Shown: in pieces, positions 3,002 to 37,139 of the stretch
Layout of the letters: each line of letters begins with the position of its first letter
Numbering within the stretch: the first letter of the stretch is position 1
From: an uncultured Candidatus Saccharibacteria bacterium
GTDB lineage: Bacteria > Patescibacteriota > Minisyncoccia > Phycocordibacterales > EsbW-18
NCBI GenBank assembly: GCA_964564385.1
Contig: CAZMAP010000002.1
Location: 1 to 40,812 of the forward strand
Reading direction: 5' to 3'
DNA: 40,812 nucleotides
Program-made: the position numbers and the translations under genes
The notes under the pieces: generated by a model
What the model saw: only the letters and a program-made list of their open reading frames with translations
Database searches by the model: none
What the model was told of the DNA's origin: nothing

Positions 3002-4081
3002 ATGTCACTCAAACGACTTACACGGTTTATTCATCGTTACGAAAAACAACTTTCGGTTGCTGCCATGGTCGGCGGTTTCATTCTTGATTCGCTCACACTT
3101 CGGCGCGTTGATCTTTTGGCCGACAATCTTGTCATCATTGTGTATCTTCTCGTTGCGGGTATTTCGATTGCCGCACTTGATCTTCGACATACGCGCATGC
3201 TTACCCATCGGTGGTTCGCATGGATGGTCACCGTTGCGCCGATTGCCATGCAATTCGTCTTCGGTGGTCTCTTTAGTTCATTTGTTGTCTTCTATCTCCG
3301 GAGTGCGTCACTTTCGGCGAGTTGGCCATTCATCGGTTTTCTTGTTGTTATGCTCGTGGGCAACGAAGCTTTTCGTCCCTATTACGAACGGCTTGTTTTT
3401 CACGTGACGGTGCTTTTTCTTGCGGTGCTCTCATACTCGATATTTCTCGTTCCAATCCTCGTTGGTGCTCTTGGAACCCACGTATTTCTCTTGAGTGTTG
3501 TTGTGAGCATTGCGTTCATCACTGCCTTTCTCGCATTTCTTTCGATATTCGCTCCCGAACGCATTCGTGAAGAGCGCGCAACAATTGTTCGCTCGATTGC
3601 GTTCACCATTATTCTTGTTGTGCTCGCATATGCGGCAAATGTCATTCCTCCTATTCCGCTCTCACTCAAAGATTCCGCGGTTGCCTATGGTGTTGTGCGC
3701 GAGGGAGACACCTATCAACTCTCTGTTGAACAGCCGTCGTTTGCCGAGCGTCTCGGTCTCGTTCAGAGCTACAATCGCGCTCCCGCCCAAGGTGTTTCGG
3801 TATGGACGTCGGTCTTTGCTCCTACTGCGCTCTCGATCCCCATCATCCATGTGTGGCAACATCGCGAAGGGGAGACGTGGGTCACTATGAGTCGTATCTC
3901 GTTCCCCATCTCAGGTGGGCGCGACGGGGGTTATCGTGGCTATTCAACCAAGACCAACATACTGCCGGGCGCATGGCGGGTATCTGTGGAGACACCAAAC
4001 GGGCAGGTGATTGGTCGGGTGCGGTTTGATATCACCGACAAGGCGGGGGATGTGGCTGCTGTTTCAACGGAAACCCGCTAG
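3002..4081 (+). CDS. Multi-pass membrane protein with C-terminal DUF2914-like domain
   Basis: The ATG at 3002 follows the upstream stop directly. There are about 7 TM helices, then IHVWQHREGETW...GGRDGGYRGYS...PGAWRVSVETPNGQVIGRVRFDI. Confidence 0.55.
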   Translation: MSLKRLTRFIHRYEKQLSVAAMVGGFILDSLTLRRVDLLADNLVIIVYLLVAGISIAALDLRHTRMLTHRWFAWMVTVAPIAMQFVFGGLFSSFVVFYLRSASLSASWPFIGFLVVMLVGNEAFRPYYERLVFHVTVLFLAVLSYSIFLVPILVGALGTHVFLLSVVVSIAFITAFLAFLSIFAPERIREERATIVRSIAFTIILVVLAYAANVIPPIPLSLKDSAVAYGVVREGDTYQLSVEQPSFAERLGLVQSYNRAPAQGVSVWTSVFAPTALSIPIIHVWQHREGETWVTMSRISFPISGGRDGGYRGYSTKTNILPGAWRVSVETPNGQVIGRVRFDITDKAGDVAAVSTETR

Positions 4082-4127
4082 GTGGTTTTGCACACGTGCA
4101 ACTTTTTTCGGGAGGTATATACTATAG

Positions 4128-4314
4128 GTAGGTCATGTTCTCTGGGTGGTGAACGGAAAACGGAACCAGTAGACAGCGCGGAGCAATCTTGGGGCTTCAG
4201 TTCAGTCACATCGACTGCAGTCGATACCCCCACGCCACGCGCTCACTACTCACTTCCATTTTCCCTTCACCATTCTCCTCATCGCCCCACGCAAAAGCGC
4301 GGGGCTCTTCTTTT
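4128..4314 (+). ncRNA. Candidate structured small RNA (long imperfect hairpin plus terminator), class unknown
   Basis: A TATA-rich box lies at 4116-4126. GGGTGGTGAA(4144-4153)+GGAAAA(4155-4160) pair with TTTTCC(4259-4264)+TTCACCATTC(4266-4275). Inner helices are GGAA/TTCC, AGTAG/CTACT and GCGCG/CGCGC, with an apical palindrome ATCGACTGCAGTCGAT. A terminator lies at 4284-4314. Confidence 0.35.
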
Positions 4315-4355
4315 CCTCGCATTTTTTGTGGTTTTTGTGTAGAGTGTCAGCGCAT

Positions 4356-4431
4356 GGTGCCTATGGTGTAACGGTTAACACTGGAGCTTGTGGAGCTCTC
4401 AATTCGGGTTCGATTCCCGATAGGCACCCCA
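4356..4431 (+). tRNA. tRNA-His (anticodon GTG) with G-1 and encoded CCA
   Basis: G-1 pairs with C73. Acceptor GTGCCTA/TAGGCAC. Anticodon loop TTGTGGA. T-arm TCGGG-TTCGATT-CCCGA. CCA is at 4429-4431. Confidence 0.88.
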
Positions 4432-4497
4432 CTGAGAGATACGTTCTGGCGCCCGAGAAAGGTCAAAACCATTTCGTAGACATGTTAGAATAAACTT

Positions 4498-5373
4498 ATG
4501 TCTCCAGAAAACCCTCCAAATATTGATACCCCAGAAACCAAGTTACAAAAAGCCGAAAGAGAAACCTTTGAAGAGTTGCCGTTACAGCTAGGTCCGCATG
4601 GGGGCCTCCTTTTTAAGGATCCTACAAAGGGATTTGATCCAGAATACGAATATCTAAGTACTGAGCGGCTTTTTACAGATGCACCAAAATTTTGGGAAGA
4701 ACAACAAGCACTAGTAGAGAATAATGGGGCCTATAAGGCGTATCCATACAAGGTGCCGTTTACTGCGATTAAGAAATTACCAGAAGAACAACGAGGTAAG
4801 GAGATACTGGCACAACTAACCCTAGCGCGCAGCATACACAGTAGCTACATTGACTTGTCCAAAAACGAAAAGCGAGACCCCGGTGCAGTAATAGAGCTTG
4901 ATATACCAGAAGGATCAGCGCGAACGTGGTTCAAGTATTTATTTTTTGAGGACTGTTTTGCTCATCCGGGAACAGGCACGTTTTCCCAATTAAAAGATGT
5001 CTTATTTGAATTATCACAAGAGGAACAACAATCGGCACTTGAGTGGGCAGTTAGATATTCCTTAATACATGGAACTCACGCACGTACCCCTGGATTTTTC
5101 GCTAAAATTGATGCCCGAGACATTGTCGGTGTTTTTCTCGATGAAAGGTTCAAGGTCTTACAGAGTTTACTCAACCAGGACTATCTAGAATACCTATGGG
5201 CACGAGACCTCGATGACAATTTTAACTTGGATACACAAGAATATAGAACACTTACGGAATCTTTGGGAATGGATCCAGAAAAGATTCTTGCAAAAGCGCG
5301 AAAATGGAGTAATTCCCAGCGCCTAGTCAATAATATTCTTACATATTACCCGGAACTAAAAGACTCCGAGTAA
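4498..5373 (+). CDS. Orphan soluble protein in an AT-richer segment after tRNA-His
   Basis: Clean 291-aa ORF with no competing frames and no motif I recognise. It uses AT-rich codons (aaa, gaa, tta), unlike its neighbours. Confidence 0.6.
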   Translation: MSPENPPNIDTPETKLQKAERETFEELPLQLGPHGGLLFKDPTKGFDPEYEYLSTERLFTDAPKFWEEQQALVENNGAYKAYPYKVPFTAIKKLPEEQRGKEILAQLTLARSIHSSYIDLSKNEKRDPGAVIELDIPEGSARTWFKYLFFEDCFAHPGTGTFSQLKDVLFELSQEEQQSALEWAVRYSLIHGTHARTPGFFAKIDARDIVGVFLDERFKVLQSLLNQDYLEYLWARDLDDNFNLDTQEYRTLTESLGMDPEKILAKARKWSNSQRLVNNILTYYPELKDSE

Positions 5374-5505
5374 GAAACATAGAAGAAATTCACTTTATTT
5401 TTTGTCCGAGAAGCATCGTTCGGATAATGTAGAATGGTCTAAACAGGCAAGCTGGGTATGACAACCAATAGTTTCAGCCCGAGATAGCACCCCAAAAACC
5501 CACAC

Positions 5506-5985
5506 ATGCATAACCCAGAAGGCCCAGCGTCAGCAGACTTCATCGATTGGGAAGCGATCAGAAAGACTGAGGAGTATCGAAAGCACATGGTTGCCTTTCT
5601 CAAGGCGCGACTTGAGGAGATTGCTCATTCGCCCGACTATATCGCGCGACTTCATCGTGCTTTGGAGACGCCACAAAAACCTCTCGAGGATTTTGATAGT
5701 CTCGAAGATTTCATGGATGCTTCTCAAGAAAATGAATTTCGCACCGAGGAAGAACAAGACATAGATGCCGAGATTTTTGCTCTTACGACTATCGGAGAGA
5801 TTGAGGCATACGTTGATGAAAACAAGATAGATTTTGATGTGCAGGAGGAAATCCGAAAATTGGAAGCGACGTATCTCGAGGACCAGCGTCAGCTCGCAGC
5901 GCTTAAAGAAAAGCACCACAGCATGCTGAGCAAGGCGCTCGAATTGATGACTGGCGAGAAAGGCAAAGACCCCGACGTACAGTAG
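5506..5985 (+). CDS. Orphan acidic helical protein
   Basis: 159-aa ORF with a TTGTCC-17-TAATGT promoter-like site at about 5433-5461. No motif recognised. Confidence 0.5.
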   Translation: MHNPEGPASADFIDWEAIRKTEEYRKHMVAFLKARLEEIAHSPDYIARLHRALETPQKPLEDFDSLEDFMDASQENEFRTEEEQDIDAEIFALTTIGEIEAYVDENKIDFDVQEEIRKLEATYLEDQRQLAALKEKHHSMLSKALELMTGEKGKDPDVQ

Positions 5986-6003
5986 GAGAGGCGGGTGTAA
6001 GCC

Positions 6004-7227
6004 TTACTCCAACTCATCCCACACATCGGCATCTTCCTGTCCGTCTATCTTAAAGAGCGCTATGCCGAGCAGGTTGTATTCTTCGGCCAAGTCGATCTTG
6101 TCTTTCATGGCGCCCGCATCACTCCAGGTCACATAGTTGAACACTGCGGCATTGCCGGTTGCGCTTGCATAGGCGAGACTGCGCGCCGCGACGACGAGGC
6201 TCTCGGGAGTGTCTTTGGGGATTGAGAAGTTTGTAATGAACTGCGGTGCATGCTTGATGAGGTCAGAGTACGAGAACGCGAGCTCGCCAGCCCCCGAGCG
6301 GCTCGGCTCGATGTTGTGCTTCTTCATCTTTTTTTCAATCGAGGGGATGTTGAATGCGCCTGCTCGACGATATTCGGCATAGCGGTCAGGAGTTACCAAT
6401 ACCTCGTATTCGTGTCCATATGTGGCGACGCCGAGCACAATCTTGTCTGCGGGGATGGTCTCGAGAGTGAGATTGAGTACGGCGCGTACCCATGCGACGT
6501 CGGAGACGGGGATGTAGGGCGCGCCCTTGTTGGCGTCGTTGAGTGTGATGTCTGCACGCTGTTGGTCGTATGCCATGATGTTCACTCGGTCGCAGTATTT
6601 TGCAATCGCGTCATAGTCATTGGCGTAGGCGAGATCGTCGGGAACGGTGCGGTACAGGTCTTCGGGTGGTGTGCGCGCCTCGATGGTGCACGAGAGGATC
6701 TTGTCTCCGAGCCCTTTCTTCAATTCTTTGAGAAAGAGGGAATAGGAATCTTTGGTTGCTGAGAGTTTTCCTTCGTAGTCAATGTCGATGCCATCGAACT
6801 TTTCTTTTTTGACGACGGAGAGAATCTTTTTGATGTGGTTTGTGCGTAGCGTTTTATCGCTGAGAATGGTGTGAACGAGCGAACCGTTGCTCGTGGTGAT
6901 TGTGGGCACCACCAAGACGTCGTCTTTGCGCGCAGCCGAGAGAAGATTCTTCCAGGCTCCCTTTTTGATGCCCATCAGATCCTTGATGTTGCCGTCGCTT
7001 TGGAGCGCGTAGCCGAAGGGATGGATCATGGACAGGTCGCCGAGATGTTTTTGTGCCGCTTTTGGTGCCCCCGATGTCCAATAGGGAACCCAGCCCGAAA
7101 TCTCAAGGTCTTGTGCTGCAGCGAGTGATGGAAAAGTGCCTACGATGAACGCCACGGCGACGAACATCATCGCCGCCTGTCTGCGCAGGCAGGCATATTT
7201 TTTTGGATGTGTGATGATGATTTTCAT
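6004..7227 (-). CDS. Secreted glycoside hydrolase family 18 (chitinase/peptidoglycan-hydrolase-like) protein
   Basis: GH18 catalytic motif FDGIDIDYEG. N-terminal basic region plus a hydrophobic signal ending in AAAQ. Alternative starts are at 7251 and 7170. Confidence 0.8.
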   Translation of the reverse strand: MKIIITHPKKYACLRRQAAMMFVAVAFIVGTFPSLAAAQDLEISGWVPYWTSGAPKAAQKHLGDLSMIHPFGYALQSDGNIKDLMGIKKGAWKNLLSAARKDDVLVVPTITTSNGSLVHTILSDKTLRTNHIKKILSVVKKEKFDGIDIDYEGKLSATKDSYSLFLKELKKGLGDKILSCTIEARTPPEDLYRTVPDDLAYANDYDAIAKYCDRVNIMAYDQQRADITLNDANKGAPYIPVSDVAWVRAVLNLTLETIPADKIVLGVATYGHEYEVLVTPDRYAEYRRAGAFNIPSIEKKMKKHNIEPSRSGAGELAFSYSDLIKHAPQFITNFSIPKDTPESLVVAARSLAYASATGNAAVFNYVTWSDAGAMKDKIDLAEEYNLLGIALFKIDGQEDADVWDELE

Positions 7228-7290
7228 ATACAATGAGTATACGCTCATCATCGAGAAGCGTTACTCGACATAATCAAAAATCATTTCTTT

Positions 7291-7749
7291 ATGGGTATCG
7301 AAGGAGCACCACACGAGATTCCGCAAGGAGAAACAGAGAAAACACCTGCATCAAAAGAACTTCCACCACACGAGCGCGAGGTTGTGAGTGCACTCAGTGA
7401 TCACTCGGCAGAAGTGGCAGAAATCGTTGGGGCTGATTTCAGTGCTGTTCTCGAAGCGGTCAAATTGTTGGGACCTGGCAATCCAGAGAACAGGAGGCTC
7501 GTTACGGAATGGACGGTGAGGGAAGAGGAGGCCGTGCGTCGGAACACTGAGCGCGAGCCTTTGGCTCGCGCCTCAATTCGGTTCAACATCCAGAGAGCGG
7601 AGCTCTACTTCGCTGCTGGAAACATTGATGGAGCGATTGATTGTCTTTATGACGCTATCGATCAAGCGGCAAATGAGGGTCACGACGATCTTCGTCAGGA
7701 AGCTCAAATGAGGGCTGACTCAGTGACGGCACAGAGTCGCTGGGCATAA
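7291..7749 (+). CDS. Hypothetical protein
   Basis: 152-aa ORF in an intergenic-sized slot. No motif recognised. Confidence 0.45.
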   Translation: MGIEGAPHEIPQGETEKTPASKELPPHEREVVSALSDHSAEVAEIVGADFSAVLEAVKLLGPGNPENRRLVTEWTVREEEAVRRNTEREPLARASIRFNIQRAELYFAAGNIDGAIDCLYDAIDQAANEGHDDLRQEAQMRADSVTAQSRWA

Positions 7750-7812
7750 GGGAATGAATCCGTTTATACTGTGTGAGCAATCCGTAGGAGATTATTTTCT
7801 AACTTTATATCT

Positions 7813-8748
7813 ATGACAAAGAGCCTCTTAACCAAACTTCCTCTCTTCGTTTTTGTGCTCGCAGGTCTCGTGCTTGCACACAATGCCCATGCCGCCGATG
7901 TTCAATGCTCGTTCACACGCGACCTCACGCTCGGTGATACTGGCGAGGATATTCGCTGTTTGCAAAAGTATCTCAACGGGGCAGGATTTACTGTTGCCAC
8001 AACAGGTGTTGGTTCCCCGGGAAACGAAACGAGTCTCTATCGAGAGCACACGGTTGAGGCGGTAAAAAAGTGGCAGACGGCTCGTGGTATCTCGCCAGCA
8101 ACGGGCACCTTCGGTCCTCTCTCGCGCTTGTCGTACACTAAGTCGCTCGCCGCATCCGTTGCCGCCACAACTCCGGCACCTGTCATTGCGGCACCGAGTA
8201 CAACAGTGACAAAGCCGTCGGTCACGACACCGTCATCACAAGAGAATAATGCGCGAACGAGGCTCAAGGCGGCAATCGAATCGCTCGAAGACGCAAAGAA
8301 AGAATTCAATGACGCGGAGGATAACAACGATGATACTGGTGATGCTGAGGACATGATCAATGACGCCAACGAGAGCTTCTTTGATGCTGTTCGTTCGTTT
8401 TTGAAAGACGACTTCACGCAAGCAGTTGATTATGCCGATGAGGCGCGGAATTTTGCCGATGACGCACAAGATGAGATTGATGGCGACGGCGATGACGATG
8501 CCACCGAGAAAGATGCTCGTAAGGCAATCAACAATGCCGAGGATGATATCAGCAACGCAGAAGATGACATCAACCAGGCCGACGACGACGGTGTCAATGT
8601 CAGGGACGCAGAAGATCTTCTCGACGATGCCAACAATCTTCTCGACGATGCCAATGATGCCTTTGACGATGAAGACTGGGACGAAGTGATCGACATCGTC
8701 GACGAGATTAACGATGTCCTCGACGACATCGACAACGAGCTCGATTAA
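7813..8748 (+). CDS. Secreted protein: signal peptide, peptidoglycan-binding domain, Asp-rich acidic tail
   Basis: Signal peptide LAHNAHA. A PG_binding_1-like segment: LTLGDTGEDIRCLQKYLN...AVKKWQTARGISPATGTFGPLS. The C-terminal half is D/E/N low complexity. Confidence 0.75.
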   Translation: MTKSLLTKLPLFVFVLAGLVLAHNAHAADVQCSFTRDLTLGDTGEDIRCLQKYLNGAGFTVATTGVGSPGNETSLYREHTVEAVKKWQTARGISPATGTFGPLSRLSYTKSLAASVAATTPAPVIAAPSTTVTKPSVTTPSSQENNARTRLKAAIESLEDAKKEFNDAEDNNDDTGDAEDMINDANESFFDAVRSFLKDDFTQAVDYADEARNFADDAQDEIDGDGDDDATEKDARKAINNAEDDISNAEDDINQADDDGVNVRDAEDLLDDANNLLDDANDAFDDEDWDEVIDIVDEINDVLDDIDNELD

Positions 8749-8845
8749 GGTTTATTTGTTGCCACGCGATATGCGTGGGGGACAAGAAGGCCCCAAGAGG
8801 GGCCTTCTTTGATATACTTGGAGAAGCTAGCTAAAAAGAACAGAT

Positions 8846-11608
8846 ATGAAACAAAACTCTATTGCTATGGGGGTGCAAACGAAGATGACGAGGCTGTTTC
8901 TTGGTGTTTTTTGTTGTGCTGTTGTGCTCGCTCTCTTTCCTGGTGTGTCACAGGCCGCTACAGCTTTGGACTCTATTCCCGATGCGGTGAAGAGTCAATA
9001 CACATTCAATGGTTCGATTTATGCGGCTGTCAGTGACGGGAACACCCTCTATGTCGGCGGCGAATTCACATCGGTGGCGCTTTCATCGCCCGGAGATCCG
9101 GTCGAGTATGAGCGCACACACATCGCGGCGATCGACCTGTCAACGTATACCCTCACCACTCTCGATACGGTGCTTGATGATGCGGTCCGTTCTCTTGAGC
9201 TCGCATCAGATGGCACGCTCTATGTTGGCGGTGATTTCTCGACGGTTGATGGCGCAGAAAATCCTTTTCTTGTCGCTCTCAATACAAGCACGGGGGTTGC
9301 ACTGTCTTCTTTTGCATCAGCACCGGATGCCTCGGTTGTTGCTCTGGCACTCTCACCTGACGAGTCGGTTCTCTATGGTGGTGGGGGCTTCTCAACCCCA
9401 GCCTCGAATGTTGTTGCATACACAACCTCGGACAGGACGGAGACTGCTTTTAGTGCACAGGCGGACCTTTCGGTTAGGGCGCTTTCAGTATCATCTGACG
9501 GAGCGTCGCTCTATATAGGAGGCGATTTCACCAAGGTGGGAGGAGAAATTCCCCAGATCGGCATAGCTCGTGTTGATGCGGATACGGGCGTGTTGGACGG
9601 CTCGTTCGCCTCTGCGCTTTCGGGCGGCAGTATATACGGCATGCAGCTTTCTTCGGATGATGGTGTGCTGTATGTGGGTGGCGATTTTGACACCTTCTTC
9701 ACACAAAGCGGCGAGGGAGCAATCTTCAATGAGACAACAAAAGCATTTGTAGCATCTCCAAAAGTTTCGACGCAGGCTGGGGGAGGCGATGCAACAATTT
9801 ATGCGGTGATCCCGGACGGTGATGGAGGGTGGTATATCGGAGGAAGTTTCACTCACGTGGGAAACACGGCACAGGCGCGGCTCGCGCACATCACTGCTGC
9901 AGGAGCGCTCGATACGAGCTTCGATCCTGTCATCAACAACGGACAGGTGAACGCATTGGAGCTTTCGCTCGACGGTACAGTGCTCTATGCGGGCGGATCG
10001 TTCAACCAGGTCGAAGGGGTGGCACATAGGCACGTTGCCGCATTCTCGACGGCAACCGGCGCGGCTACGGCGTTCGATCCCGATCCCGATGCAACAGTTC
10101 GTGATCTTGAGCTTTCGTCCGACGGCGATACGCTCTATATAGCGGGCGATTTCAGTGCGGTGGCGGGAGGCAGTCGCCACGGAATCGCGGCGTTCGATGT
10201 GGGGACCGATGGCTCGCTTCTAGCGTTCGACGCCGATCTCTACGGCGCTGGGTATGCCATCGAGCTGTCGGCCGATGATTCTGTTTTGTATGCTGGTGGA
10301 AATTTTACGAGCGTCAAGTATGGTGCTGGGCCCGGGACGCTCCGAGACCGCATCGCGGCATTTACCACGGCTGGTGCAGGGGCAGTGACGGCTTTTAACC
10401 CAGGCGCCGACAGCATCGTGCACGACCTCCTTCTTTCGGGGGGCGGAGGGACTTTGTACGCGGGAGGAGAGTTCTCTGTTGCAGGAGGTGAGGCGAGAGG
10501 ACGTTTTGCGGCACTCGATACTGTAACGGGCAGTTCAGCGGGCCTTTCTGATATTGGTATCACGGGAGGTATCGCAGCGGTCTTTTCAATGGGGGTCGCG
10601 TCAGATGGAGAGACTGTGTACCTTGGTGGAGATGATTTCGCTGAGGTCGGCGGCGTGGCGCGAACGCGTTTTGCCGAAATCGATGCGGCGACAGGAGCAG
10701 TGACAAGCTTTAATCCTGCTTTTGATGATACGGTGTACGCTGTTGCTGTTGATGCAAGCGCTGGGAGACTTTATGTGGGCGGCAGCTCGTCGGGGTTCGG
10801 GTTCGAGACAGCTTCAAAGATTGTTGCAATCAACACAGCTGACGGCTCGTTTGTCTCTAGCTTTGCACCAAGCGCGAACAATACCGTGCGCGTACTCAAG
10901 CTTTCGCCCGATGACACGATTCTCTATGCCGGCGGGCTTTTTACCGACATCTCGAGCACGGCGCGCAACTATCTTGCCGCACTCGATACATCTGACGGTT
11001 CACTAACGGCATTTGACCCGTCGGGGACGTTCTCGGTCTATGGCATGTCGCTTGCGCCGGATGACTCGGAATTGTATGTGGGGAGTTTTGATGACGGCGA
11101 CGCCATGGCGTCTGACCTGCTCATCTTTGATGCAGATGGAGATGCTGGCGGGGCAGGTGATGACGATGATGACGACGGTTCGGGGGGCGGTGATACGGGG
11201 AGCAGTGGCTCGAGCCGCCGCGGCGCCGCGCACTCAACTCAGGGAAACAGTCGCCTTTTCTTCCTTCTCGAAAGACTTCGCGATCTTTTGAGAGAGCTCG
11301 TCAGTATAGGGGGGACGATTCCTCCGGGCGCGGAGCAGTATCTCATGGATGATAGCGTTGGGAGTGCATGCTCGTTTGGGCGCGATCTCACGCTTGGTGA
11401 CAGAGGAAATGATGTGATCTGCCTTCAGAAGATTCTCATCACGCGTGCGGTTGGCACCGCTGGGCAGGCGCTGGGAGCCAATGGCGCAACAGGATTCTTT
11501 GGTGCTCTCACACAAGCGGCTCTTACTGAGTTTCAGGCATCAGTGGGTATCACGCCGTCGGCTGGGTACTTTGGTTCTGTGACTCGCGCATACATGAGCA
11601 CGCTTTGA
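8846..11608 (+). CDS. Large secreted beta-propeller repeat protein (delta-60/DUF5122-like repeats) with C-terminal peptidoglycan-binding domain
   Basis: At least 12 repeats of the type V.AL.LS.DG..LY.GG.F..V.G..R..IAA.D..TG....F.P, a poly-Asp linker, then LTLGDRGNDVICLQKIL...LTEFQASVGITPSAGYFGSVT. Confidence 0.8.
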   Translation: MKQNSIAMGVQTKMTRLFLGVFCCAVVLALFPGVSQAATALDSIPDAVKSQYTFNGSIYAAVSDGNTLYVGGEFTSVALSSPGDPVEYERTHIAAIDLSTYTLTTLDTVLDDAVRSLELASDGTLYVGGDFSTVDGAENPFLVALNTSTGVALSSFASAPDASVVALALSPDESVLYGGGGFSTPASNVVAYTTSDRTETAFSAQADLSVRALSVSSDGASLYIGGDFTKVGGEIPQIGIARVDADTGVLDGSFASALSGGSIYGMQLSSDDGVLYVGGDFDTFFTQSGEGAIFNETTKAFVASPKVSTQAGGGDATIYAVIPDGDGGWYIGGSFTHVGNTAQARLAHITAAGALDTSFDPVINNGQVNALELSLDGTVLYAGGSFNQVEGVAHRHVAAFSTATGAATAFDPDPDATVRDLELSSDGDTLYIAGDFSAVAGGSRHGIAAFDVGTDGSLLAFDADLYGAGYAIELSADDSVLYAGGNFTSVKYGAGPGTLRDRIAAFTTAGAGAVTAFNPGADSIVHDLLLSGGGGTLYAGGEFSVAGGEARGRFAALDTVTGSSAGLSDIGITGGIAAVFSMGVASDGETVYLGGDDFAEVGGVARTRFAEIDAATGAVTSFNPAFDDTVYAVAVDASAGRLYVGGSSSGFGFETASKIVAINTADGSFVSSFAPSANNTVRVLKLSPDDTILYAGGLFTDISSTARNYLAALDTSDGSLTAFDPSGTFSVYGMSLAPDDSELYVGSFDDGDAMASDLLIFDADGDAGGAGDDDDDDGSGGGDTGSSGSSRRGAAHSTQGNSRLFFLLERLRDLLRELVSIGGTIPPGAEQYLMDDSVGSACSFGRDLTLGDRGNDVICLQKILITRAVGTAGQALGANGATGFFGALTQAALTEFQASVGITPSAGYFGSVTRAYMSTL

Positions 11609-29879: not shown

Positions 29880-30359
29880 ATGAAGAACAGCAAGATGTTG
29901 CTGTGGGCGTTCATCGTGAGCGCCTGCATCACCATCGTGCAGTTTGCGATGGTGGCAATGGGGGCTGGGGAGGTCGCGTGGATCGGAGTGGTCGGGGTGG
30001 CGGCACTCACCGTCATCACGGTGTACATGCATCGGCCTGAGGGTCCAAGCATCGTACTCGCCATGTTTTCCGTGGCGGGACTGATCCTCGGTGGTGTGTT
30101 TCAGCTGGCGGGGAAAGAAGGGGTTCTCTTTGCTGCGGCGGCGCTGGTCGTGGCGCTGTTTGTGGAATCGAGGGCTTTGACTATGAGGAGCCGTCTCGAT
30201 GGTGCTCAAGGCCTCATGCTCATGCTGGGCATGATCATCGGGTGGCAGGTTAGCGCCACCTGGACGCTCATTCTCCTCGTTTCCTGGGTGTGGGCGCTCT
30301 TCCAGGAGCACCGCCGTGCCGCCAGGTGCGCACTCCCCACGGCTTCGACAGGTACCTGA
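29880..30359 (+). CDS. Orphan 4-TM membrane protein, GC-rich cassette
   Basis: SD GAGAGGAAGGAAG. Four hydrophobic helices. A terminator CCCCGCC/GGCGGGG lies at 30390-30431. Confidence 0.6.
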   Translation: MKNSKMLLWAFIVSACITIVQFAMVAMGAGEVAWIGVVGVAALTVITVYMHRPEGPSIVLAMFSVAGLILGGVFQLAGKEGVLFAAAALVVALFVESRALTMRSRLDGAQGLMLMLGMIIGWQVSATWTLILLVSWVWALFQEHRRAARCALPTASTGT

Positions 30360-30445: not shown

Positions 30446-31912
30446 GTGGCGCATGGTGCTACCATGCGCCCCGTTTTTGTTCACACTGGATTCTGGGGAT
30501 TCCTGAGCGGTGTATCGCTTCAGTTTTTCTATGACGTTTCGTGGGAGTATGGATTTGAAGCAATCCTCGTCGGTATCGCGTTTGTTCTCATGTATAAGTC
30601 GTCAAACAAGAAGGCGATTTTTTGTTTCGCACTTTTTCTTGTTTGCTTTGGAATAGGTGTCGCTCGTTCCTACCAGTCGAGACTCTTTGCTGGTGACCCA
30701 GATATTTCCGCACATGTTGGCCAATCGCTGACCATTGAGGGAGTTATTGTGGACGATCCACAGATGAGTCCGACGGGGCAAAAGATCTTGGTTGATGTGG
30801 GGAAGGAAGACATTCTCGTCTCGGTTCCGACATATCCCATTTTTTCATATGGAGATAGGGTGAGTGTTGCAGGAAAGCTCGAGCTTCCTGAATCATTTGA
30901 AACGGACTTGGGACGGGTGTTCGATTATCCGAGGTTTCTTGCACGAAAGGGAATATTTCATGTGATCAAGCGGGGGAGCGTAGAGTTCATTGAATCAGAC
31001 CAAGGGAATCCAATCCGCGCTGTCTTTATCAAAACAAAACATGCGTTTGTCGAAAGCATCGGTCGGACCGTGTCGGAACCATCAGCAGGACTGGCATCGG
31101 GTGTCGTTCTTGGTGTCGAGGGTGCGTTGTCAAAAGAACACGAGGAGGCGTTTCGTGTTGCTGGGTTGATCCATGTCATCGTGGTTTCCGGCTACAACAT
31201 CACCATGGCAGGCGACTTCGTGCGGACGCTTCTCAGATCATTCTCTCCAATCGTGGGGTCGCTCGGGAGCATTGTCGGTATCGTCGTCTACATCATGATC
31301 GCCGGAGCGTCATCAACAGCAATCCGCGCGGGCATCATGGCCGGGCTTACCGTGCTTGCACGTGTGGTGAAACGACACTACAGCGTGACGCGGTCACTCA
31401 TGCTCGCCGCATGCGTGATGATATTTCACGTGCCGTATATCTTGCTCTACGATCCGTCATTCCAACTCTCGTTTCTCGCCACGTGGGGACTTGTTGCCAT
31501 CGCACCGCTCTATGCCAAACATCTCGAGTGGGTGCCCGAGGCGGGTGGATTGCGCGAGACGCTCGGAACAACCCTCGGTGCACAGACAGCGGTGACGCCC
31601 ATTCTCTTATATCAATCAGGCATGACCAACCTCCTCACGCTTCCTGCGAATCTCTTGGTCTTGCCCACGATGCCGCTCTTCATGCTCGGCGCTTTGGCGG
31701 TCGGCGTCGCAGGATTATTTGGTACATTCATCGCGCTTCCGTTCTCAATCCTCATCGAGGCGCTCGGCGCGTACACTTTCCGGGTCGTCAAAATCGCCGA
31801 CAGCTTTCCGTCGATGTTGGTGAAGGTGGGTGTGATGCCGATCTCAGTGCTTGTTGGCCTGTACGTGGTGATTGGGGTGTGGGTGTTATTTGGACGAAAA
31901 GGCGACAATTGA
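30446..31912 (+). CDS. comEC: ComEC/Rec2 competence channel protein (DUF4131 plus Competence domains, no MBL domain)
   Basis: OB-like N-terminal domain, then FRVAGLIHVIVVSGYNITM and multiple TM helices. The start may be the ATG at 30464. Confidence 0.85.
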   Translation: MAHGATMRPVFVHTGFWGFLSGVSLQFFYDVSWEYGFEAILVGIAFVLMYKSSNKKAIFCFALFLVCFGIGVARSYQSRLFAGDPDISAHVGQSLTIEGVIVDDPQMSPTGQKILVDVGKEDILVSVPTYPIFSYGDRVSVAGKLELPESFETDLGRVFDYPRFLARKGIFHVIKRGSVEFIESDQGNPIRAVFIKTKHAFVESIGRTVSEPSAGLASGVVLGVEGALSKEHEEAFRVAGLIHVIVVSGYNITMAGDFVRTLLRSFSPIVGSLGSIVGIVVYIMIAGASSTAIRAGIMAGLTVLARVVKRHYSVTRSLMLAACVMIFHVPYILLYDPSFQLSFLATWGLVAIAPLYAKHLEWVPEAGGLRETLGTTLGAQTAVTPILLYQSGMTNLLTLPANLLVLPTMPLFMLGALAVGVAGLFGTFIALPFSILIEALGAYTFRVVKIADSFPSMLVKVGVMPISVLVGLYVVIGVWVLFGRKGDN

Positions 31913-31948
31913 AAGGCAACAATTCATTTTCATTTAGATTGTCGCCTT
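31899..31948. terminator. Bidirectional hairpin between convergent comEC and sodA
   Basis: AAGGCGACAAT(31899-31909) pairs with ATTGTCGCCTT(31938-31948). Confidence 0.7.
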
Positions 31949-32584
31949 CTAATCCTGAATCGCTTTATCAAACCACTCAGAGACTGTCTCCCAGTTGATC
32001 GCATCAAGATATGCCGCGGCATACGTTGCCTTGTCGGCCGGAGCATAGTCCAAAAGATATGAGTGTTCCCACATGTCCAAGGTGACAATAGGGGACAGGC
32101 CCGTCAGGTGACCCAAGTGCTGTTCGTCGACCCACTGGGTGAGGAGTCGCTTGGCGATAGGGTCGTAGTAGAGCATTGCCCAGCCGATGCCGCGGGTGAG
32201 GGCGATGGCCTTGAACCGGTTCATGAAGGCGTCGACGCTGCCCCACGTTTCGGTTATTGCCTGTGCGAGAGCGCTGTCTGCCGAGAGGGCTTTGGGGCCA
32301 CCCTCAAGGGCGCCAAAGTAATATTCGTGGTTTCGCATGCCGTCGAATTCGAAGGCAAAGCGGCGCTGGAGCTCGCCAAGGGCGTATGCGTTTGCCCCCG
32401 CCTGCGCCAAGGCTCCGGCGGACAGGTCGGAATCCTTGGAGTACTCCTCAATCTTGCCAAGGACAACATTTGCCTGTTTTACGTACCCTTCATAGAGCTT
32501 GATGTGGGTTTCAAACGTCTTGGAAGAGATGCCGGGAACCTCCGGAAGTGCAAACTGGCGGGCTGAGTAGGGGGTAGTGGTCAT
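31949..32584 (-). CDS. sodA: Fe/Mn superoxide dismutase
   Basis: DMWEHSYLLDY, NHEYYF and GWAMLYYD. The start is taken at MTTTPYS (32584). Confidence 0.88.
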   Translation of the reverse strand: MTTTPYSARQFALPEVPGISSKTFETHIKLYEGYVKQANVVLGKIEEYSKDSDLSAGALAQAGANAYALGELQRRFAFEFDGMRNHEYYFGALEGGPKALSADSALAQAITETWGSVDAFMNRFKAIALTRGIGWAMLYYDPIAKRLLTQWVDEQHLGHLTGLSPIVTLDMWEHSYLLDYAPADKATYAAAYLDAINWETVSEWFDKAIQD

Positions 32585-32711
32585 GATGGGGTGAAAAAGA
32601 TTCTTGGTGAGGTCTTCTAATAAAAATAAGTATATCATGGCCACAAAATGGCTTTGTTTAGCTGTTTTTACAATTCAGCACTTGACGAATAAGCAATCAT
32701 GTGTGGTGCTA

Positions 32712-32790
32712 TTGACAAAAAAATCGGCACTGCTATAATGAGGCATCTTTCTCTTCGGAAAGAGCCGTCCTCCGGGGCGGCTTTTTCGTT
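32712..32790 (+). promoter_or_regulatory. Consensus promoter TTGACA-16-TATAAT followed by a two-hairpin leader that ends in a terminator-like stem plus T-run
   Basis: TTGACA at 32712-32717 and TATAAT at 32734-32739. Hairpins CTTTC-tcttcg-GAAAG and AGCCGTCC-tccg-GGGCGGCT, then TTTTTCGTT, ending 13 nt before the ATG at 32803. Confidence 0.55.
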
Positions 32791-32802
32791 GGGGAAGACA
32801 CT

Positions 32803-33384
32803 ATGCAATATACAAAAATCAAAAACCTTTATACGCTTCTTGCAAAAATGGCTGTGTGCGCGCTCATTGCGGCCCTTGCGTTTACTTCTAACATCGCGCT
32901 TCTCAGCAATCACCACGCCCAGGCGGCATCTATTGAGGCCCTTGGATCGTCTGATGTTGACGATGAGATTCTCTGGTTTGCCCGAACTATCTATTCTGAG
33001 ACCAAGAAGGTCGAAGAACAGCGACTCGTTGCGTGGGTTATCCGCAATCGCGTTGACTCAGGTCTCTACGGCGATACATATGAAGATGTCGTTCTTGCTC
33101 GCGGTCAGTTCTCTGGTATGCATGCAACTGACAAGCAGTATGCCACCAACATCTCGATGGACTATGACGATACGAGCCCCGCGTGGGACAGTGCCCTTTC
33201 GATTGCCCGTTCTGTCTATTATGCGGACGCGATTCTCAACCCGCTTTCGTCAGATGTGATGCATTTCTACTCACCGATTTCTGTCATCAACACGCCGTCA
33301 TGGGCGTTGGGTCTTGAACCCGCTCACACGGTTGCCGATCCTGTCACCAAGCACATCCGCTTCGCGTTCTACGCCATCAACTAA
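32803..33384 (+). CDS. Secreted cell wall hydrolase (SleB/CwlJ Hydrolase_2-like)
   Basis: Signal peptide, then ARTIYSETKK...VAWVIRNRVDS..YGDTYEDVVLARGQFSG. Confidence 0.65.
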   Translation: MQYTKIKNLYTLLAKMAVCALIAALAFTSNIALLSNHHAQAASIEALGSSDVDDEILWFARTIYSETKKVEEQRLVAWVIRNRVDSGLYGDTYEDVVLARGQFSGMHATDKQYATNISMDYDDTSPAWDSALSIARSVYYADAILNPLSSDVMHFYSPISVINTPSWALGLEPAHTVADPVTKHIRFAFYAIN

Positions 33385-33466
33385 AAGATAGGGAAGGACG
33401 CAAACCACCCCGTACAGAAATGTGCGGGGTGGTTTGTTTATGTAATGTTTAAACAGTCTGTAAAGA

Positions 33467-33494
33467 TTGACTTATGTTTTATAGTTGCTATAAT
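33467..33494 (+). promoter_or_regulatory. Near-consensus promoter TTGACT-16-TATAAT
   Basis: TTGACT at 33467-33472 and TATAAT at 33489-33494. Confidence 0.65.
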
Positions 33495-33552
33495 CCAAAA
33501 TGGATGATCGGCGAATGTCTCGCCCTTCACAATTCAGTGCGGGAGGAGTCAC

Positions 33553-35373
33553 ATGTTTCTGTTGATCGCGTTTTTGTCCGCTCTCGTCGGCGCGTTGCCA
33601 CTTTTCCTTCGTGGAAAAGTGGGGGCCGCCATCTGGGCCGCTTGCGGCTATGGTGTCGTGAACACCGTCCTCTTCTACGTGTCGTGTCCGTCTCTGGCCT
33701 ATCCGATTTTCGGCGGGGTCGGCTTCATGACCCTCATCTGGCTTTTCGTTTCAGCCGGAATCGACGGGTCTGGCGACTACGGCTTCGAGCTCACGACGTC
33801 CGCCTGGGCACCCATCGTGCTTCTGGCCGCGTTCATTCTCGTGCTCGCCGGTTCGTGCAGTATGTTCCGATCGGACGACTACTATCGCCTGATCGGGGAC
33901 GTTGAGAAGCGCGAGTGGACGAAGGATGTCCAGCCCAAGGATCCCAGGCACGTCCGTCTGGTCCCTGAGAAGTTGGCCTATTACCTCGCTACCAAGCAGT
34001 TGGGTGAGGCCGGCGGCGCCATCGGTAGCCAGTTCTCGGTCTCCGAGAACAGTCTGACGCTCCAGGAGTTCCACGGCGAACTCTGGTACGTGGCTCCGCT
34101 CGAGTTCAAAGGCTTCAGTGTCTGGACTTCTGCGGATGTCACGCCGGGCTTCGTCATGGTTCACGGCGAGGACCCCAACCGCCCGGCAATCGTGAAGACC
34201 GGACACCAGTTCCGTTTCATGGAGAGCGCGTACTTCGGCGACAACGCTGAGCGCCACCTCTGGAAGGACGGCTACTGGAACAAGGTTCTCTCGGATTGGA
34301 CGTTCGAGATCAACGAGGAGGGCAAACCCTTCTGGGTGGTTACGGTTTCCAAACCGACCATCGGATGGGGAGGCTCTAAAGTTCTCGGCGTCGTGGTCAT
34401 GGATCCGACGAGCGGTGAACACACGTTCTACGCCGTTGGGTCGGTCCCGAAGTGGATCGACCGCGTGTATCCGAGTCACATCGTCTCCAACTACATCAGC
34501 AATTGGGGGCGGTTCGCCTCAGGATGGTGGAACAGTTTTTGGGGCAAGAAGGACATCATGAAGCCCGAGGAGCCGAACATCATCTACGGTGCAGATGGCG
34601 ATCCGTACTGGGTCACCGGCCTGACGTCGACCAACATCAAGGACAACTCCATGGTTGGCCTGATGTACACCAACAGCAGGACCGGTAAGTCGGTCCGGTA
34701 TCACGCTGTCGGCGGCACGGACGAAGCGGTCATCGAGTTGGTCAACAACAAGGTGGCCTACCAGAAGTTGAGCGGCGCTGCGCCGGTTCTGTACAACATC
34801 TACGGAGAGATGACCTCGATCGTGCCTCTCCTCGGTGAGAGTCACACGTTTCAGGGAGTTGCGTTCGTCGATGTGCGGAACATGCGTCTCGTCGTCGGTA
34901 AGGACCAGGAAGACGCCGCCCGTCAGTACCAGGAACTTCTTGCTACGAGCGGTCAGCAGTTGGCTCCCGAGAAGTCGCGCGATTCGGTCGAGAAGGAATT
35001 TCAGATCGACCGAATTTCGGCGGCGAGTGAGAACGGTACGACGGTGTACTATCTCTACGTCGCGAAGGAGCGCCACATCTTCACGGGTACGAGGAAGGTT
35101 TCCTCGGAACTCGTCGTGACGCAGCCCGGCGACCACGTCCGCGTTCGGTATGTGAATTCGGGCGAAGGTGTCATGCCGATTCTGAGTCTCAAGAATCTCG
35201 ACATCCTCATCGAACAGACCGACGTGCAGCGGCAGTTGGCCGAGCGCGTCGAGTCCAGGAAGGATGAGGTGTCGCTTTCCGAAGAGGGGAGGTCGGCACG
35301 CGGAAGGTTGGAGGAGATGACCGACGAAGAAATCGGGAGACTCCTCCAGAAGCTTGACAACGAGAAGAAGTAG
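33553..35373 (+). CDS. Orphan 606-aa membrane protein (N-terminal ~4 TM, large extracytoplasmic domain, C-terminal coiled coil), GC-rich cassette
   Basis: SD GGGAGGAG. The ORF is uninterrupted with protein-like composition. A terminator lies at 35423-35453. No family assigned. Confidence 0.7.
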   Translation: MFLLIAFLSALVGALPLFLRGKVGAAIWAACGYGVVNTVLFYVSCPSLAYPIFGGVGFMTLIWLFVSAGIDGSGDYGFELTTSAWAPIVLLAAFILVLAGSCSMFRSDDYYRLIGDVEKREWTKDVQPKDPRHVRLVPEKLAYYLATKQLGEAGGAIGSQFSVSENSLTLQEFHGELWYVAPLEFKGFSVWTSADVTPGFVMVHGEDPNRPAIVKTGHQFRFMESAYFGDNAERHLWKDGYWNKVLSDWTFEINEEGKPFWVVTVSKPTIGWGGSKVLGVVVMDPTSGEHTFYAVGSVPKWIDRVYPSHIVSNYISNWGRFASGWWNSFWGKKDIMKPEEPNIIYGADGDPYWVTGLTSTNIKDNSMVGLMYTNSRTGKSVRYHAVGGTDEAVIELVNNKVAYQKLSGAAPVLYNIYGEMTSIVPLLGESHTFQGVAFVDVRNMRLVVGKDQEDAARQYQELLATSGQQLAPEKSRDSVEKEFQIDRISAASENGTTVYYLYVAKERHIFTGTRKVSSELVVTQPGDHVRVRYVNSGEGVMPILSLKNLDILIEQTDVQRQLAERVESRKDEVSLSEEGRSARGRLEEMTDEEIGRLLQKLDNEKK

Positions 35374-35489
35374 CGCTGAGGTGTTCATTGTGCCGGTGTG
35401 GCGAATTCGCCACGCCGTCATGGCCGCCAGCCCTAGGCTGGCGGTTTTCTTTTACCCCAATCTCATCTCCACCACGGTACACTGTGCCC

Positions 35490-36341
35490 ATGAAGCATTG
35501 GCTCCGACTTATCGTTCTCTATCTTGTCATCGCAAGTGCAACCGCGCTCGTGTGGATGGCATACGATGCGCCGGACAAAATGCTCACCGTCGCTTTTCTC
35601 GATATCGGACAAGGTGATTCTATTTTTATACAAAGCCCCGCAGGTCGTCAGGTGCTCATTGATGGGGGAGTCGATCGTGATGTCTTGGCTCAGCTCGCAC
35701 GTGTCATGCCGTTCTTCGACCGCTCTATTGATGTAATGATTGCGACGCATCCAGACAAAGACCACATCGGCGGGTTGCCGTATGTGTTCGAACAATACGA
35801 TATCGATATGGTGCTCGACCCTGGCCTCGAAGCCGACACAGAAGGATACGATTTCTATGCTGATATGCGCGATCAAGAAAAAGATGTCATCTATCGCGAA
35901 GCTCGCAGAGGACAGGTGATTGATCTTGGTGGGGGAGCGTACCTTCGTATTCTCTATCCCGATAAAGATATGGATGGGGCAGAGGATACGAATAGTGCAT
36001 CGATTGTCACTCAGCTCATATATGGTGAGACCGAGGTGATGCTCACCGGTGACGCGCCCGATGAGACCGAAAGCTATCTTGTTTCAATCGACAGTCATCT
36101 CAAGAGCGACATCCTCAAAGCGGGACATCACGGTTCGAAGACCTCAACCTCGCAGGAGTTCCTTGATGCCGTTGATCCCGACTACACAATTATTTCAGCA
36201 GGGAAGGATAATTCGTACGGGCATCCGCACAAAGAGGTCATCGACCGACTCGTTGCGGCAAGCACGACGATACTCGAAACATTTGAAGAGGGGACTATTG
36301 TGTTCGAGAGCGATGGAGCGAATCTGAGCTTAAAAGAGTAG
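35490..36341 (+). CDS. ComEC-type MBL-fold metallo-hydrolase (stand-alone, N-terminal TM anchor)
   Basis: FLDIGQGDSIFIQ, ATHPDKDHIGGL, GHHGSKTS and ISAGKDNSYGHPH. The start is taken at the ATG at 35490 (MKHWLRL). Confidence 0.85.
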   Translation: MKHWLRLIVLYLVIASATALVWMAYDAPDKMLTVAFLDIGQGDSIFIQSPAGRQVLIDGGVDRDVLAQLARVMPFFDRSIDVMIATHPDKDHIGGLPYVFEQYDIDMVLDPGLEADTEGYDFYADMRDQEKDVIYREARRGQVIDLGGGAYLRILYPDKDMDGAEDTNSASIVTQLIYGETEVMLTGDAPDETESYLVSIDSHLKSDILKAGHHGSKTSTSQEFLDAVDPDYTIISAGKDNSYGHPHKEVIDRLVAASTTILETFEEGTIVFESDGANLSLKE

Positions 36342-36379
36342 TTTTTAAAGAGAATTTATACCTCGTATGCTATGGGTGG

Positions 36380-36772
36380 ATGATGGAGAAAGATTTTAGC
36401 AACTGGCACAGAAAGAAGTCGTGGATCCAAAAAGACAAGGTCAGACCCTTCTTTCATGAGCAAGAAGTCTGGTTTGCTTTGGTGGGTTCGAATGTGGGGT
36501 TTGAGCAGGATGGAAGAGGAAAAGACTTTCTGCGGCCCGTCATTATCGTTAAAAAGTTTAATGATTCGATAGGTTGGTGTTTGCCTCTTACAAAAAAGAA
36601 GAAATCAGGTGAATACTATTTTGTTGTGACACATGGAGGTGGAGTCATCAGCACAGCTATCCTGTCCCAGCTCCGTCTCATTGATGCAAAACGTCTTCTC
36701 TATCAATCAGGAAATGTGATGGATGCTGATTTTGAACAGATAAAGAAAAGGCTCACTCGATTTCTCGAATGA
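36380..36772 (+). CDS. PemK/MazF-like toxin-fold protein, no adjacent antitoxin ORF
   Basis: EVWFALVGSNVGFEQDGRGKDFLRPVIIVKKFN...CLPLT resembles the PemK-like family (WW.NLG.N.G.EQ.G....RPVL+LKKFN). Confidence 0.5.
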   Translation: MMEKDFSNWHRKKSWIQKDKVRPFFHEQEVWFALVGSNVGFEQDGRGKDFLRPVIIVKKFNDSIGWCLPLTKKKKSGEYYFVVTHGGGVISTAILSQLRLIDAKRLLYQSGNVMDADFEQIKKRLTRFLE

Positions 36773-36881
36773 GCCTGTGAATGTAACCCCTTGCGGGGAG
36801 GGCCGAAGCCATTGTCACAATGTCAGTATAGAAAAGTGAAACGAACTGTCAATTTTGAGCAAAACAGATTTTATCAAGCGC

Positions 36882-37139
36882 TTATTTCTTGATGACGCCT
36901 GCTTTCTTGAGAGTCGCGTAGACGCCGTTCTTGCGGACGGTTTTCATACCGCGGTTGGAGATGGTGACGGTAACGGTCTTGCCGGTCTCAGGAACAAAAA
37001 GACGGCGCTTCTGGAGGTTTGCCTTGCGACGAACCTTGCCGCGCTTTACGCCGGGGTTGAACTGGGTAGCACGAACACGGTTGCTGTAGCGACCGCCCAT
37101 GATTCCGCCTTTTCCTGTTACGACACAGACTTTTGCCAT
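36882..37139 (-). CDS. rpmB: 50S ribosomal protein L28
   Basis: MAKVCVVTGKGGIMGGRYSNRVRAT...RLFVPETGKTVTVTISNRGMKT. Confidence 0.88.
   Translation of the reverse strand: MAKVCVVTGKGGIMGGRYSNRVRATQFNPGVKRGKVRRKANLQKRRLFVPETGKTVTVTISNRGMKTVRKNGVYATLKKAGVIKK

Follow-up and report, generated by a model that had tools for sequence, protein, structure and literature searches.

A foreign-looking membrane-protein gene in a variable slot of a Candidatus Saccharibacteria genome and its large, unnamed family in monoderm bacteria

A single-gene unit in a variable slot

We analyzed a 40,812-nucleotide window – positions 1 to 40,812 of contig CAZMAP010000002.1, from an uncultured Candidatus Saccharibacteria bacterium (genome G000) – in which a gene for a 606-amino acid membrane protein, P0001, is located between a gene for a SleB-type cell-wall hydrolase and one for a ComEC-type metallo-beta-lactamase (MBL). 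Pfam matches identify the neighbors in the window as comEC, sod, the SleB-type hydrolase (Hydrolase_2), the ComEC-type MBL, and a PemK-like gene. The original prediction had described a GC-rich cassette at 33467-35453 with a single open reading frame (ORF), a promoter, a Shine-Dalgarno sequence, and two 3' hairpins that include a terminator. All of these elements were found as claimed, and both peptides quoted in that description are present in the 606-residue translation. The features of the locus, all on the forward (+) strand, are as follows.

33401-33436, +: hairpin terminating the SleB-type cell-wall hydrolase gene that lies upstream (16-nt arms, 94% complementary)
33441-35450, +: segment absent from the closest relative, G012 (blastn, junction read directly)
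33467-33494, +: sigma-70-type promoter TTGACT-16-TATAAT (11/12 consensus positions, TG upstream of the -10 box)
33495-35440, +: variable cargo proper, made up of leader, ORF, and terminators (alignment to relative G006)
33541-33548, +: Shine-Dalgarno sequence GGGAGGAG, separated from the ATG by 4 nt (read directly)
33553-35373, +: coding sequence of the 606-amino acid membrane protein P0001 (ORF list, translation)
35391-35420, +: first 3' hairpin, palindrome GGTGTGGCGAATTCGCCACGCC (folding, repeat analysis)
35422-35453, +: intrinsic terminator, with an 11-bp stem at 35422-35446 (8 GC pairs) followed by TTCTTTT

The promoter is the sole site of its kind in 33300-35600 and occurs once in the whole genome, and the two 3' hairpins jointly fold at -43.3 kcal/mol (z = -5.5).

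The gene differs from its genome in composition. Its GC content of 0.587 exceeds the genome value of 0.509, and since GC1 and GC2 are ordinary the excess lies wholly at third codon positions. GC content at these positions (GC3) is 0.786, compared with a genome mean of 0.541 (standard deviation 0.081) – a value about 3 standard deviations above the mean that ranks 12th among 672 ORFs. High expression was ruled out as the source of this bias: the ribosomal protein genes of the genome have a GC3 of only 0.51-0.61, and the GC3 of the 606-residue gene therefore does not reflect expression-linked codon usage.

Comparison with relatives showed that the gene occupies a variable site. A blastn comparison with the closest relative (G012; MBL protein 91% identical) aligned window 31955-33440 with L091 2108-3567 and window 35451-36316 with L091 3564-4426; because these flanks abut directly in G012, 33441-35450 is a clean 2.0-kb indel. 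Together with GC3, this comparison supports the description of the gene as a GC-rich, independently transcribed single-gene unit. In a second relative (G006; MBL 89% identical), similarity takes in both the hydrolase terminator and the promoter, stops just after the -10 box, and restarts at GTTTTCTTTTACCCCAATC; the slot there holds a different gene, for a 302-amino acid membrane protein, with a GC3 of 0.83. G003 and G014, which are more distant, have the same promoter (0-3 mismatches) 3' of the hydrolase gene, with other GC3-rich genes downstream. The idea that the promoter arrived as part of an incoming cassette was therefore abandoned, as it sits at this site in G006, G003, and G014 ahead of other genes. 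The slot is bounded on its left edge by the hydrolase terminator hairpin, which is kept in G012, G006, and G014, and its right junction is the T-tail of the intrinsic terminator (after 35446). Slot cargo in G003 (L117 1508-7322) and G014 (L118 403-4307) is multi-gene and includes a similarly sized trio of ~300-, 365-, and 605-amino acid proteins that are unrelated to the 606-residue family and encoded by genes of raised GC3.

No direct or inverted repeats bracket 33441-35450, and no recombinase gene was found among the ORFs near the slot. A transposon, integron cassette, or integrative island was rejected on the grounds that no bracketing repeats and no recombinase were found and that the promoter head has no second copy in the genome. 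Across the order, comEC and the MBL gene are as close as 119 bp (G021) and as far apart as 9.8 kb (G003), and the order of the two genes is inverted in G023. ComEC is split into two genes in every relative examined, as it is in the window (31912-35490). We treat the position of the 606-residue gene beside comEC and the SleB-type hydrolase gene as coincidental, as it is not conserved. The locus illustrates clearly in what way tiny Patescibacteria genomes vary: fixed promoter and flanks, species-specific cargo, and a foreign codon signature.

A separate difference between strains lies close by. An orphan PemK/MazF-like ORF at 36380-36772 (within 36317-36882) has no counterpart in G012 or G006 and is AT-rich, with a GC3 of 0.44, unlike the 606-residue gene. 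Because rpmB follows the MBL gene almost directly in G012 and G006, this ORF represents another strain-specific insertion, located 1 kb downstream of the first.

A large, unnamed family of monoderm bacteria

P0001 is a full-length member of a large, unnamed family that is found in monoderm bacteria and in some Lactobacillus phages. It has at least 231 matches, the top 120 of which are 40-71% identical over 90-100% of its length, and the family comprises 1,409 representatives at 50% identity (618 at E < 1e-30). In alignment A1, which holds 45 family members, and in alignment A3, P0001 aligns over its full length, including the four transmembrane (TM) helices, the ectodomain, and the beta module described below. 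Searches with P0001 returned no curated match in Pfam, NCBIfam, PHROGs, PADLOC, or PDB sequences; no precomputed Pfam domain is present among the family representatives; and a PDB profile search with the family gave merely chance matches to TM helices (E >= 0.14). The original prediction had called the family unknown, which is accurate in that no curated model matches but not in that the protein belongs to a very large group with core genes in Enterococcus and the Bacillus cereus group.

Family members occur in 69 of 401 sampled Bacilli genomes (17%), 23 of 401 Actinomycetota (6%), and 9 of 401 Patescibacteria (2%). The family is of interest as a large, monoderm-only group – present in about one-sixth of Bacilli, core in E. 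faecalis and in the B. cereus group, and scattered in Actinomycetota and Patescibacteria – whose conserved ectodomain is covered by no Pfam or NCBIfam profile.

Two names are in use for homologues, and they are misleading or empty. The Enterococcus faecalis orthologue belongs to a cluster of 1,288 sequences with the NCBI name "DNA-binding protein" and is 24% identical to P0001 over residues 88-534 (E = 6e-34). The B. cereus-group orthologue is named "DUF3981 domain-containing protein"; BLASTP aligns P0001 with the B. cereus protein P0402, which carries PF13139, at 29% identity over residues 168-551 (E = 5e-49). PF13139 (115 positions, 25-bit cut-off) models solely the N-terminal membrane part of B. 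cereus-group proteins. Its matches are confined to this region in the B. cereus-group genomes G870 and G1089, and none was found at E <= 1 in P0001 or anywhere in G000. The DUF3981 proteins and the Lactobacillales "DNA-binding protein" are nonetheless true homologues, with four N-terminal TM helices, an ectodomain, and a C-terminal beta module. They lack the charged C-terminal helix of P0001 and are resident genes with host-like codon usage, whereas the P0001 gene is a foreign-looking accessory gene. Literature searches on the E. faecalis locus (with guessed EF30xx tags) and on the Lactobacillus phages 521B and SAC12B returned nothing on a family protein.

The family gene always stands alone. 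All-against-all clustering of ORFs in 78 loci found no recurrent neighbor, a Pfam census of 124 neighbors gave at most 3 matches for any family and none to Hydrolase_2, and no recurrent context was seen in Bacillaceae or Lactobacillales loci.

Phage copies are present in the virulent L. brevis Herelleviridae phages 521B and SAC12B, where they lie in the early region with transposase genes flanking, and in the temperate L. crispatus phage vB_Lcr_AB1, between ERF/helix-turn-helix (HTH) genes and ArpU. A search of BFVD also returned a full-length viral structural match, A0A6G5YLZ4 (template modeling score (TM-score) 0.68-0.70, E = 5e-33). OR846613.1 (L108, "Enterococcus phage Efs 1-1-1", UNVERIFIED_ORG) was left out of the phage count because the record looks like host chromosomal DNA. 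Its gene order matches that of an E. faecalis chromosome (L110) and comprises an ECF sigma/anti-sigma pair, truA, and genes for a dicarboxylate symporter and a P-type ATPase.

Two proposed kinships were rejected. A distant resemblance to UPF0182-type membrane proteins, offered as an impression in the original prediction, did not survive profile comparison. Against PF03699 (27-bit cut-off), hmmscan of P0001 gave no match at E <= 1; a six-frame search of G000 was likewise negative, while the control genomes of C. glutamicum and S. elongatus matched; and hhalign of A1 with 12 actinobacterial UPF0182 proteins reached a probability of 2.5% and covered just 18 TM columns. The two families are alike in that each has multiple TM helices, a large non-cytoplasmic domain, stand-alone genes, and a patchy presence in Patescibacteria (18 of 401 genomes for UPF0182), but UPF0182 proteins are 900-1000 amino acids long and have no detectable sequence or profile similarity to P0001. 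Kinship with the Pip/YueB/YjaE phage receptors was set aside because their architecture – 1+5 TM helices and a long alpha-helical rod ectodomain (PMC12474359) – is unlike that of P0001, with its four N-terminal TM helices and its beta-rich domain.

The distribution of UPF0182 in Actinomycetota is a separate observation. All 25 genomes of this phylum that carry the present family (G429-G431, G445, G475-G829) are without UPF0182, which is present in 29 of 41 random genomes. The present family may functionally replace UPF0182 in Actinomycetota; since one Patescibacteria genome (G307) carries both families, the exclusion is probably a clade effect.

Protein architecture and conserved residues

AlphaFold2 models and amino acid composition bear out the layout originally claimed for P0001: four TM helices, a Trp/Gly/Tyr-rich domain, a beta module, and a charged tail. 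The full-length model has a predicted local distance difference test score (pLDDT) of 86, and a model of the ectodomain alone reaches a pLDDT of 91 and a predicted TM-score of 0.88. These parts map to the window, all on the forward strand, as follows.

33553-33855, +: N-terminal four-helix membrane anchor, residues 1-101 (AlphaFold2 helices 2-19, 23-44, 51-72, and 82-101)
33865-34962, +: conserved ectodomain of four helix-plus-four-strand modules, residues 105-470 (AlphaFold2, invariant columns, Foldseek)
34984-35196, +: small C-terminal beta module, residues 478-548, similar to oligonucleotide/oligosaccharide-binding (OB) and TOBE folds (AlphaFold2 strands, sub-threshold TOBE matches)
35221-35367, +: charged C-terminal helix, residues 557-605 (AlphaFold2, alignments)

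In the full-length model, the beta-rich domain spans residues ~117-450. Its modules lie at ~139-215, 232-294, 308-388, and 390-449, each made up of a four-stranded sheet preceded by one or two helices, and a long helix connects the fourth module to the beta module. Residues 102-470 include 14 Trp, 18 Tyr, and 35 Gly. Sub-threshold TOBE/TOBE_2 matches to the C-terminal module were obtained for 5 members of the family as well as for the E. faecalis homologue. The charged helix is present in most Patescibacteria copies and missing from Bacilli and Actinomycetota copies.

Loop 1 of the membrane anchor has 2.1 Lys and Arg residues on average and loop 2 has none; both loop 1 and loop 3 of the E. faecalis homologue are rich in Lys. 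Because of this charge distribution, the positive-inside rule predicts that loops 1 and 3 are cytoplasmic and that the ~500-residue C-terminal part, with the large domain, lies outside the membrane – a topology that we consider likely.

In 54-57 aligned sequences that cover four phyla as well as phages, residues A142, Q171, R234, E252, G288, P299, D303, and G319 are invariant, and P198, G199, Y200, D207, G324, N327, T377, G378, Y383, and G387 are nearly so. R234, E252, and D303, together with D207, N327, Y200, and Y383, point to one conserved site. The confident model, the predicted outside topology, and the three invariant charged residues make the family directly testable in tractable hosts.

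The structural comparison that the original prediction had proposed started from confident models, and it gave no fold match: Foldseek returned nothing from the PDB above a TM-score of 0.26. The weak matches were to propeller-type carbohydrate-active enzymes (CAZymes), 5hx0, CyRPA, and the C-domain of YpeB (5boi; E = 6e-4, probability 0.87, TM-score 0.16/0.24, root-mean-square deviation 16 Å). YpeB (PDB 5BOI) is a membrane-anchored tandem PepSY protein that partners SleB, a spore cortex lytic enzyme. P0001 is like YpeB in its N-terminal membrane anchor, its predicted extracytoplasmic helix-plus-four-strand modules, and its monoderm hosts. P0001 also adjoins a SleB-type Hydrolase_2 gene in the window, although this adjacency is not conserved (the G012 site is empty). 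It differs from YpeB in having four TM helices rather than one, four modules in a compact domain, and an extra beta-barrel. The fourth module of the E. faecalis homologue gave a sub-threshold PepSY match (E = 0.0014, 19.4 bits against a 24-bit cut-off); PF03413 (PepSY) was not found at E <= 5 in P0001 or any of 45 family members.

Origin and possible role of the gene

The gene is not conserved at this position, in agreement with the original prediction: the site is empty in G012, and the family was found in none of 30 relatives (14 other species of the genus and 16 further relatives). Its nearest homologue, at 71% identity, is on contig L001 of a closely related organism (ProRS 81% and AspRS 80% identical). 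The L001 copy, whose GC3 is 0.77, is equipped with a promoter and a terminator of its own, and it lies at a different locus, between the TrpRS and AspRS genes, in a 9.8-kb accessory island. DNA similarity between the window and L001 is restricted to the ORF, with unrelated flanks. No single donor lineage, which the original prediction had hoped to identify, can be named; the nearest copy is in a related genome and at a different locus. The L001 island (3970-11126) encodes an HTH protein, a 738-amino acid AAA_13 ATPase, a small MBL-fold protein, and a GNAT protein, and it resembles a defense or accessory island. In the window genome, just ~0.9 kb separates the TrpRS and AspRS genes.

Both phylogeny and codon usage bear on how the gene is passed on. 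In the tree, the window and L001 copies are sisters (100/100), the crown Patescibacteria clade mixes class-level labels, and the Lactobacillus phage copies cluster with Lactobacillales copies. We compared GC3 between the family gene and its neighbors in two sets of loci (L001-L063 against L064-L088). In Patescibacteria hosts the family gene exceeds its neighbors almost everywhere – by +0.10 on average, with a positive difference in 88% of 57 loci, a largest value of +0.40, and excesses of 0.3-0.4 in AT-rich Patescibacteria – whereas in Bacillaceae and Actinomycetota it is like them. Values for the gene and its neighbors at individual Patescibacteria loci are 0.73 and 0.40 (L021), 0.79 and 0.39 (L042), and 0.71 and 0.41 (L033). 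The GC3 excess in Patescibacteria is a persistent foreign signature over many hosts. On account of the patchy distribution, the GC3 pattern, and the tree, the gene appears to be native to Bacilli and Actinomycetota, and Patescibacteria seem to have passed it among themselves repeatedly. At the level of the locus, we are confident that the gene is real and that it is a laterally acquired accessory gene in a hypervariable slot.

For locus and protein together, the explanation that we favor, with reservations, is that this laterally acquired slot gene encodes an outward-facing protein that binds or processes part of the cell envelope. The slot has its own conserved, outward-facing promoter, behind which species of the genus hold different GC3-rich membrane-protein genes and G012 holds none. 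Once DNA has been taken up, recombination through the conserved flanks would swap the cargo, with junctions that fall in the T-tails of terminators. Flank recombination is the most likely route because the slot lacks a recombinase gene and terminal repeats. Core-flanked slots that naturally transformable bacteria exchange by homologous recombination also have conserved flanks, unrelated cargo, and no recombinase or terminal repeats, and ComEC is encoded here as well. Unlike in known core-flanked slots, each cargo appears to reuse a resident promoter and consists of one or a few genes with a strongly deviant GC3; transformation, in contrast to those bacteria, is something we infer for the present lineage.

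In the favored explanation, the four N-terminal helices would hold the protein in the membrane such that loops 1 and 3 face the cytoplasm, and the outside part would consist of four PepSY-like modules, an OB/TOBE-like barrel, and, in Patescibacteria, the charged helix. The conserved site may bind or process peptidoglycan or a lipid-linked or wall glycopolymer, or may control an enzyme acting on one. The site does not resemble a fast-evolving receptor. The monoderm-only distribution, the predicted outside topology, and the invariant Arg/Glu/Asp set together suggest an envelope component as the target, and we tentatively propose that the protein binds or processes a conserved one. As no neighboring gene recurs, it would act alone or with unlinked partners. 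A more far-reaching proposal, which we regard as doubtful, is that the site is a promoter-defined "expression slot" in which unrelated GC3-rich membrane-protein genes are swapped by transformation and flank recombination, that the 606-residue protein comes from a GC-rich pool of envelope genes shared among Patescibacteria, and that the family represents an undescribed extracytoplasmic fold with an R-E-D site acting on the monoderm envelope.

Several points weigh against the favored explanation. On the side of the locus, the empty site would be explained just as well by an old deletion in G012, and the recombination mechanism is one that we infer from conserved flanks and absent mobile-element marks. 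On the side of the protein, the topology is derived from the positive-inside rule alone, and that the invariant residues share one pocket is an assumption. The resemblances to PepSY/YpeB and to propellers are weak, because all PDB TM-scores are at or below 0.26, and self-comparison with hhalign recognized no internal sequence repeats among the four modules (best off-diagonal probability 7%). Neither experiment nor genomic context links the family to any substrate, and Lactobacillales members carry the label "DNA-binding protein", a name whose basis we could not trace.

Among other explanations, the one that fares best, though we consider it unlikely, is that the gene takes part in phage conflict – as an envelope factor for superinfection exclusion or phage blocking, or as a phage entry factor – and is traded and phage-borne for that reason. 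Copies in 521B, SAC12B (early region), and vB_Lcr_AB1, along with the viral structural match in BFVD, are consistent with such a role. So is the setting in Patescibacteria, where the gene is patchy, foreign-looking, and within variable regions: the L001 copy shares its island with the AAA_13 ATPase and HTH genes, the L002 copy adjoins Schlafen-type helicase and MazG-like genes, and the window has its strain-specific PemK-like gene 1 kb downstream. However, PADLOC and PHROG searches gave no match, the neighbor census showed no enrichment in defense genes, and in 17% of Bacilli the family gene is a single-copy chromosomal gene with neighbor-like codon usage, core in E. faecalis. Such core chromosomal status, like a well-conserved ectodomain with invariant polar residues, is atypical for arms-race genes. 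The 521B copy lies between transposase and resolvase genes and may for this reason be captured host DNA.

It is less probable still that the protein is an extracytoplasmic CAZyme – a divergent propeller-like glycoside hydrolase (GH), phosphorylase, or lyase that acts on wall glycans through the catalytic carboxylates E252 and D303. The top PDB matches are mostly 5- and 6-bladed propeller CAZymes (GH117 3p2n, GH43 3qee/3qef, GH130 5ay9, GH68 2yft, sialidases, and polysaccharide lyase family PL25), and R234, E252, D303, and D207 are invariant or nearly so. Yet the TM-scores of 0.15-0.26 are in the range of unrelated folds; against the value above ~0.5 that a propeller fold of the GH43/32/68/117/130 type would give, the best was 0.20-0.26. 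Moreover, the domain has just four sheet modules with a helix in each, from which canonical propellers differ, and no CAZy-type Pfam match appeared in 45 members even at E = 5.

A DNA-uptake accessory – an outward-facing DNA receptor cooperating with ComEC – would account for the position between comEC and the separated MBL gene, the NCBI label on Lactobacillales homologues, the OB/TOBE-like C-terminal barrel, and weak Foldseek matches to HIN and LEF-3 OB-fold proteins, but it is highly improbable given that the site is empty in G012 and filled by unrelated genes in G006, G003, and G014, that none of 78 other loci ties the family to competence genes, that the L001 copy lies between tRNA-synthetase genes, and that the OB-type matches have TM-scores < 0.17. 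We give equally little credence to an ancestral native gene that descended vertically, was lost from relatives, and owes its GC3 to selection: the sister relationship of the window and L001 copies (100/100), their 71% amino acid identity against 63-81% for housekeeping proteins, and their shared high GC3 would fit, but the two copies occupy different loci with unrelated flanks, the gene is missing from the 14 other species of the genus and 16 further relatives, the GC3 excess is repeated in unrelated Patescibacteria hosts and not in Bacilli or Actinomycetota, and highly expressed genes of the genome are not GC3-rich.

The 606-residue gene is not the only one of its composition in G000. Genome-wide, 19 of 672 ORFs have a GC3 of at least 0.72, and these are mostly accessory or hypothetical-looking. 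GC3-rich ORFs elsewhere in the genome include C29:911-1564, C17:6291-7754, and C17:7705-8604; within the window, a 159-amino acid ORF with four TM helices at 29880-30359 has a GC3 of 0.76, and an ORF at 995-1792 is likewise GC3-rich. The genome seems to hold a distinct pool of GC3-rich genes.

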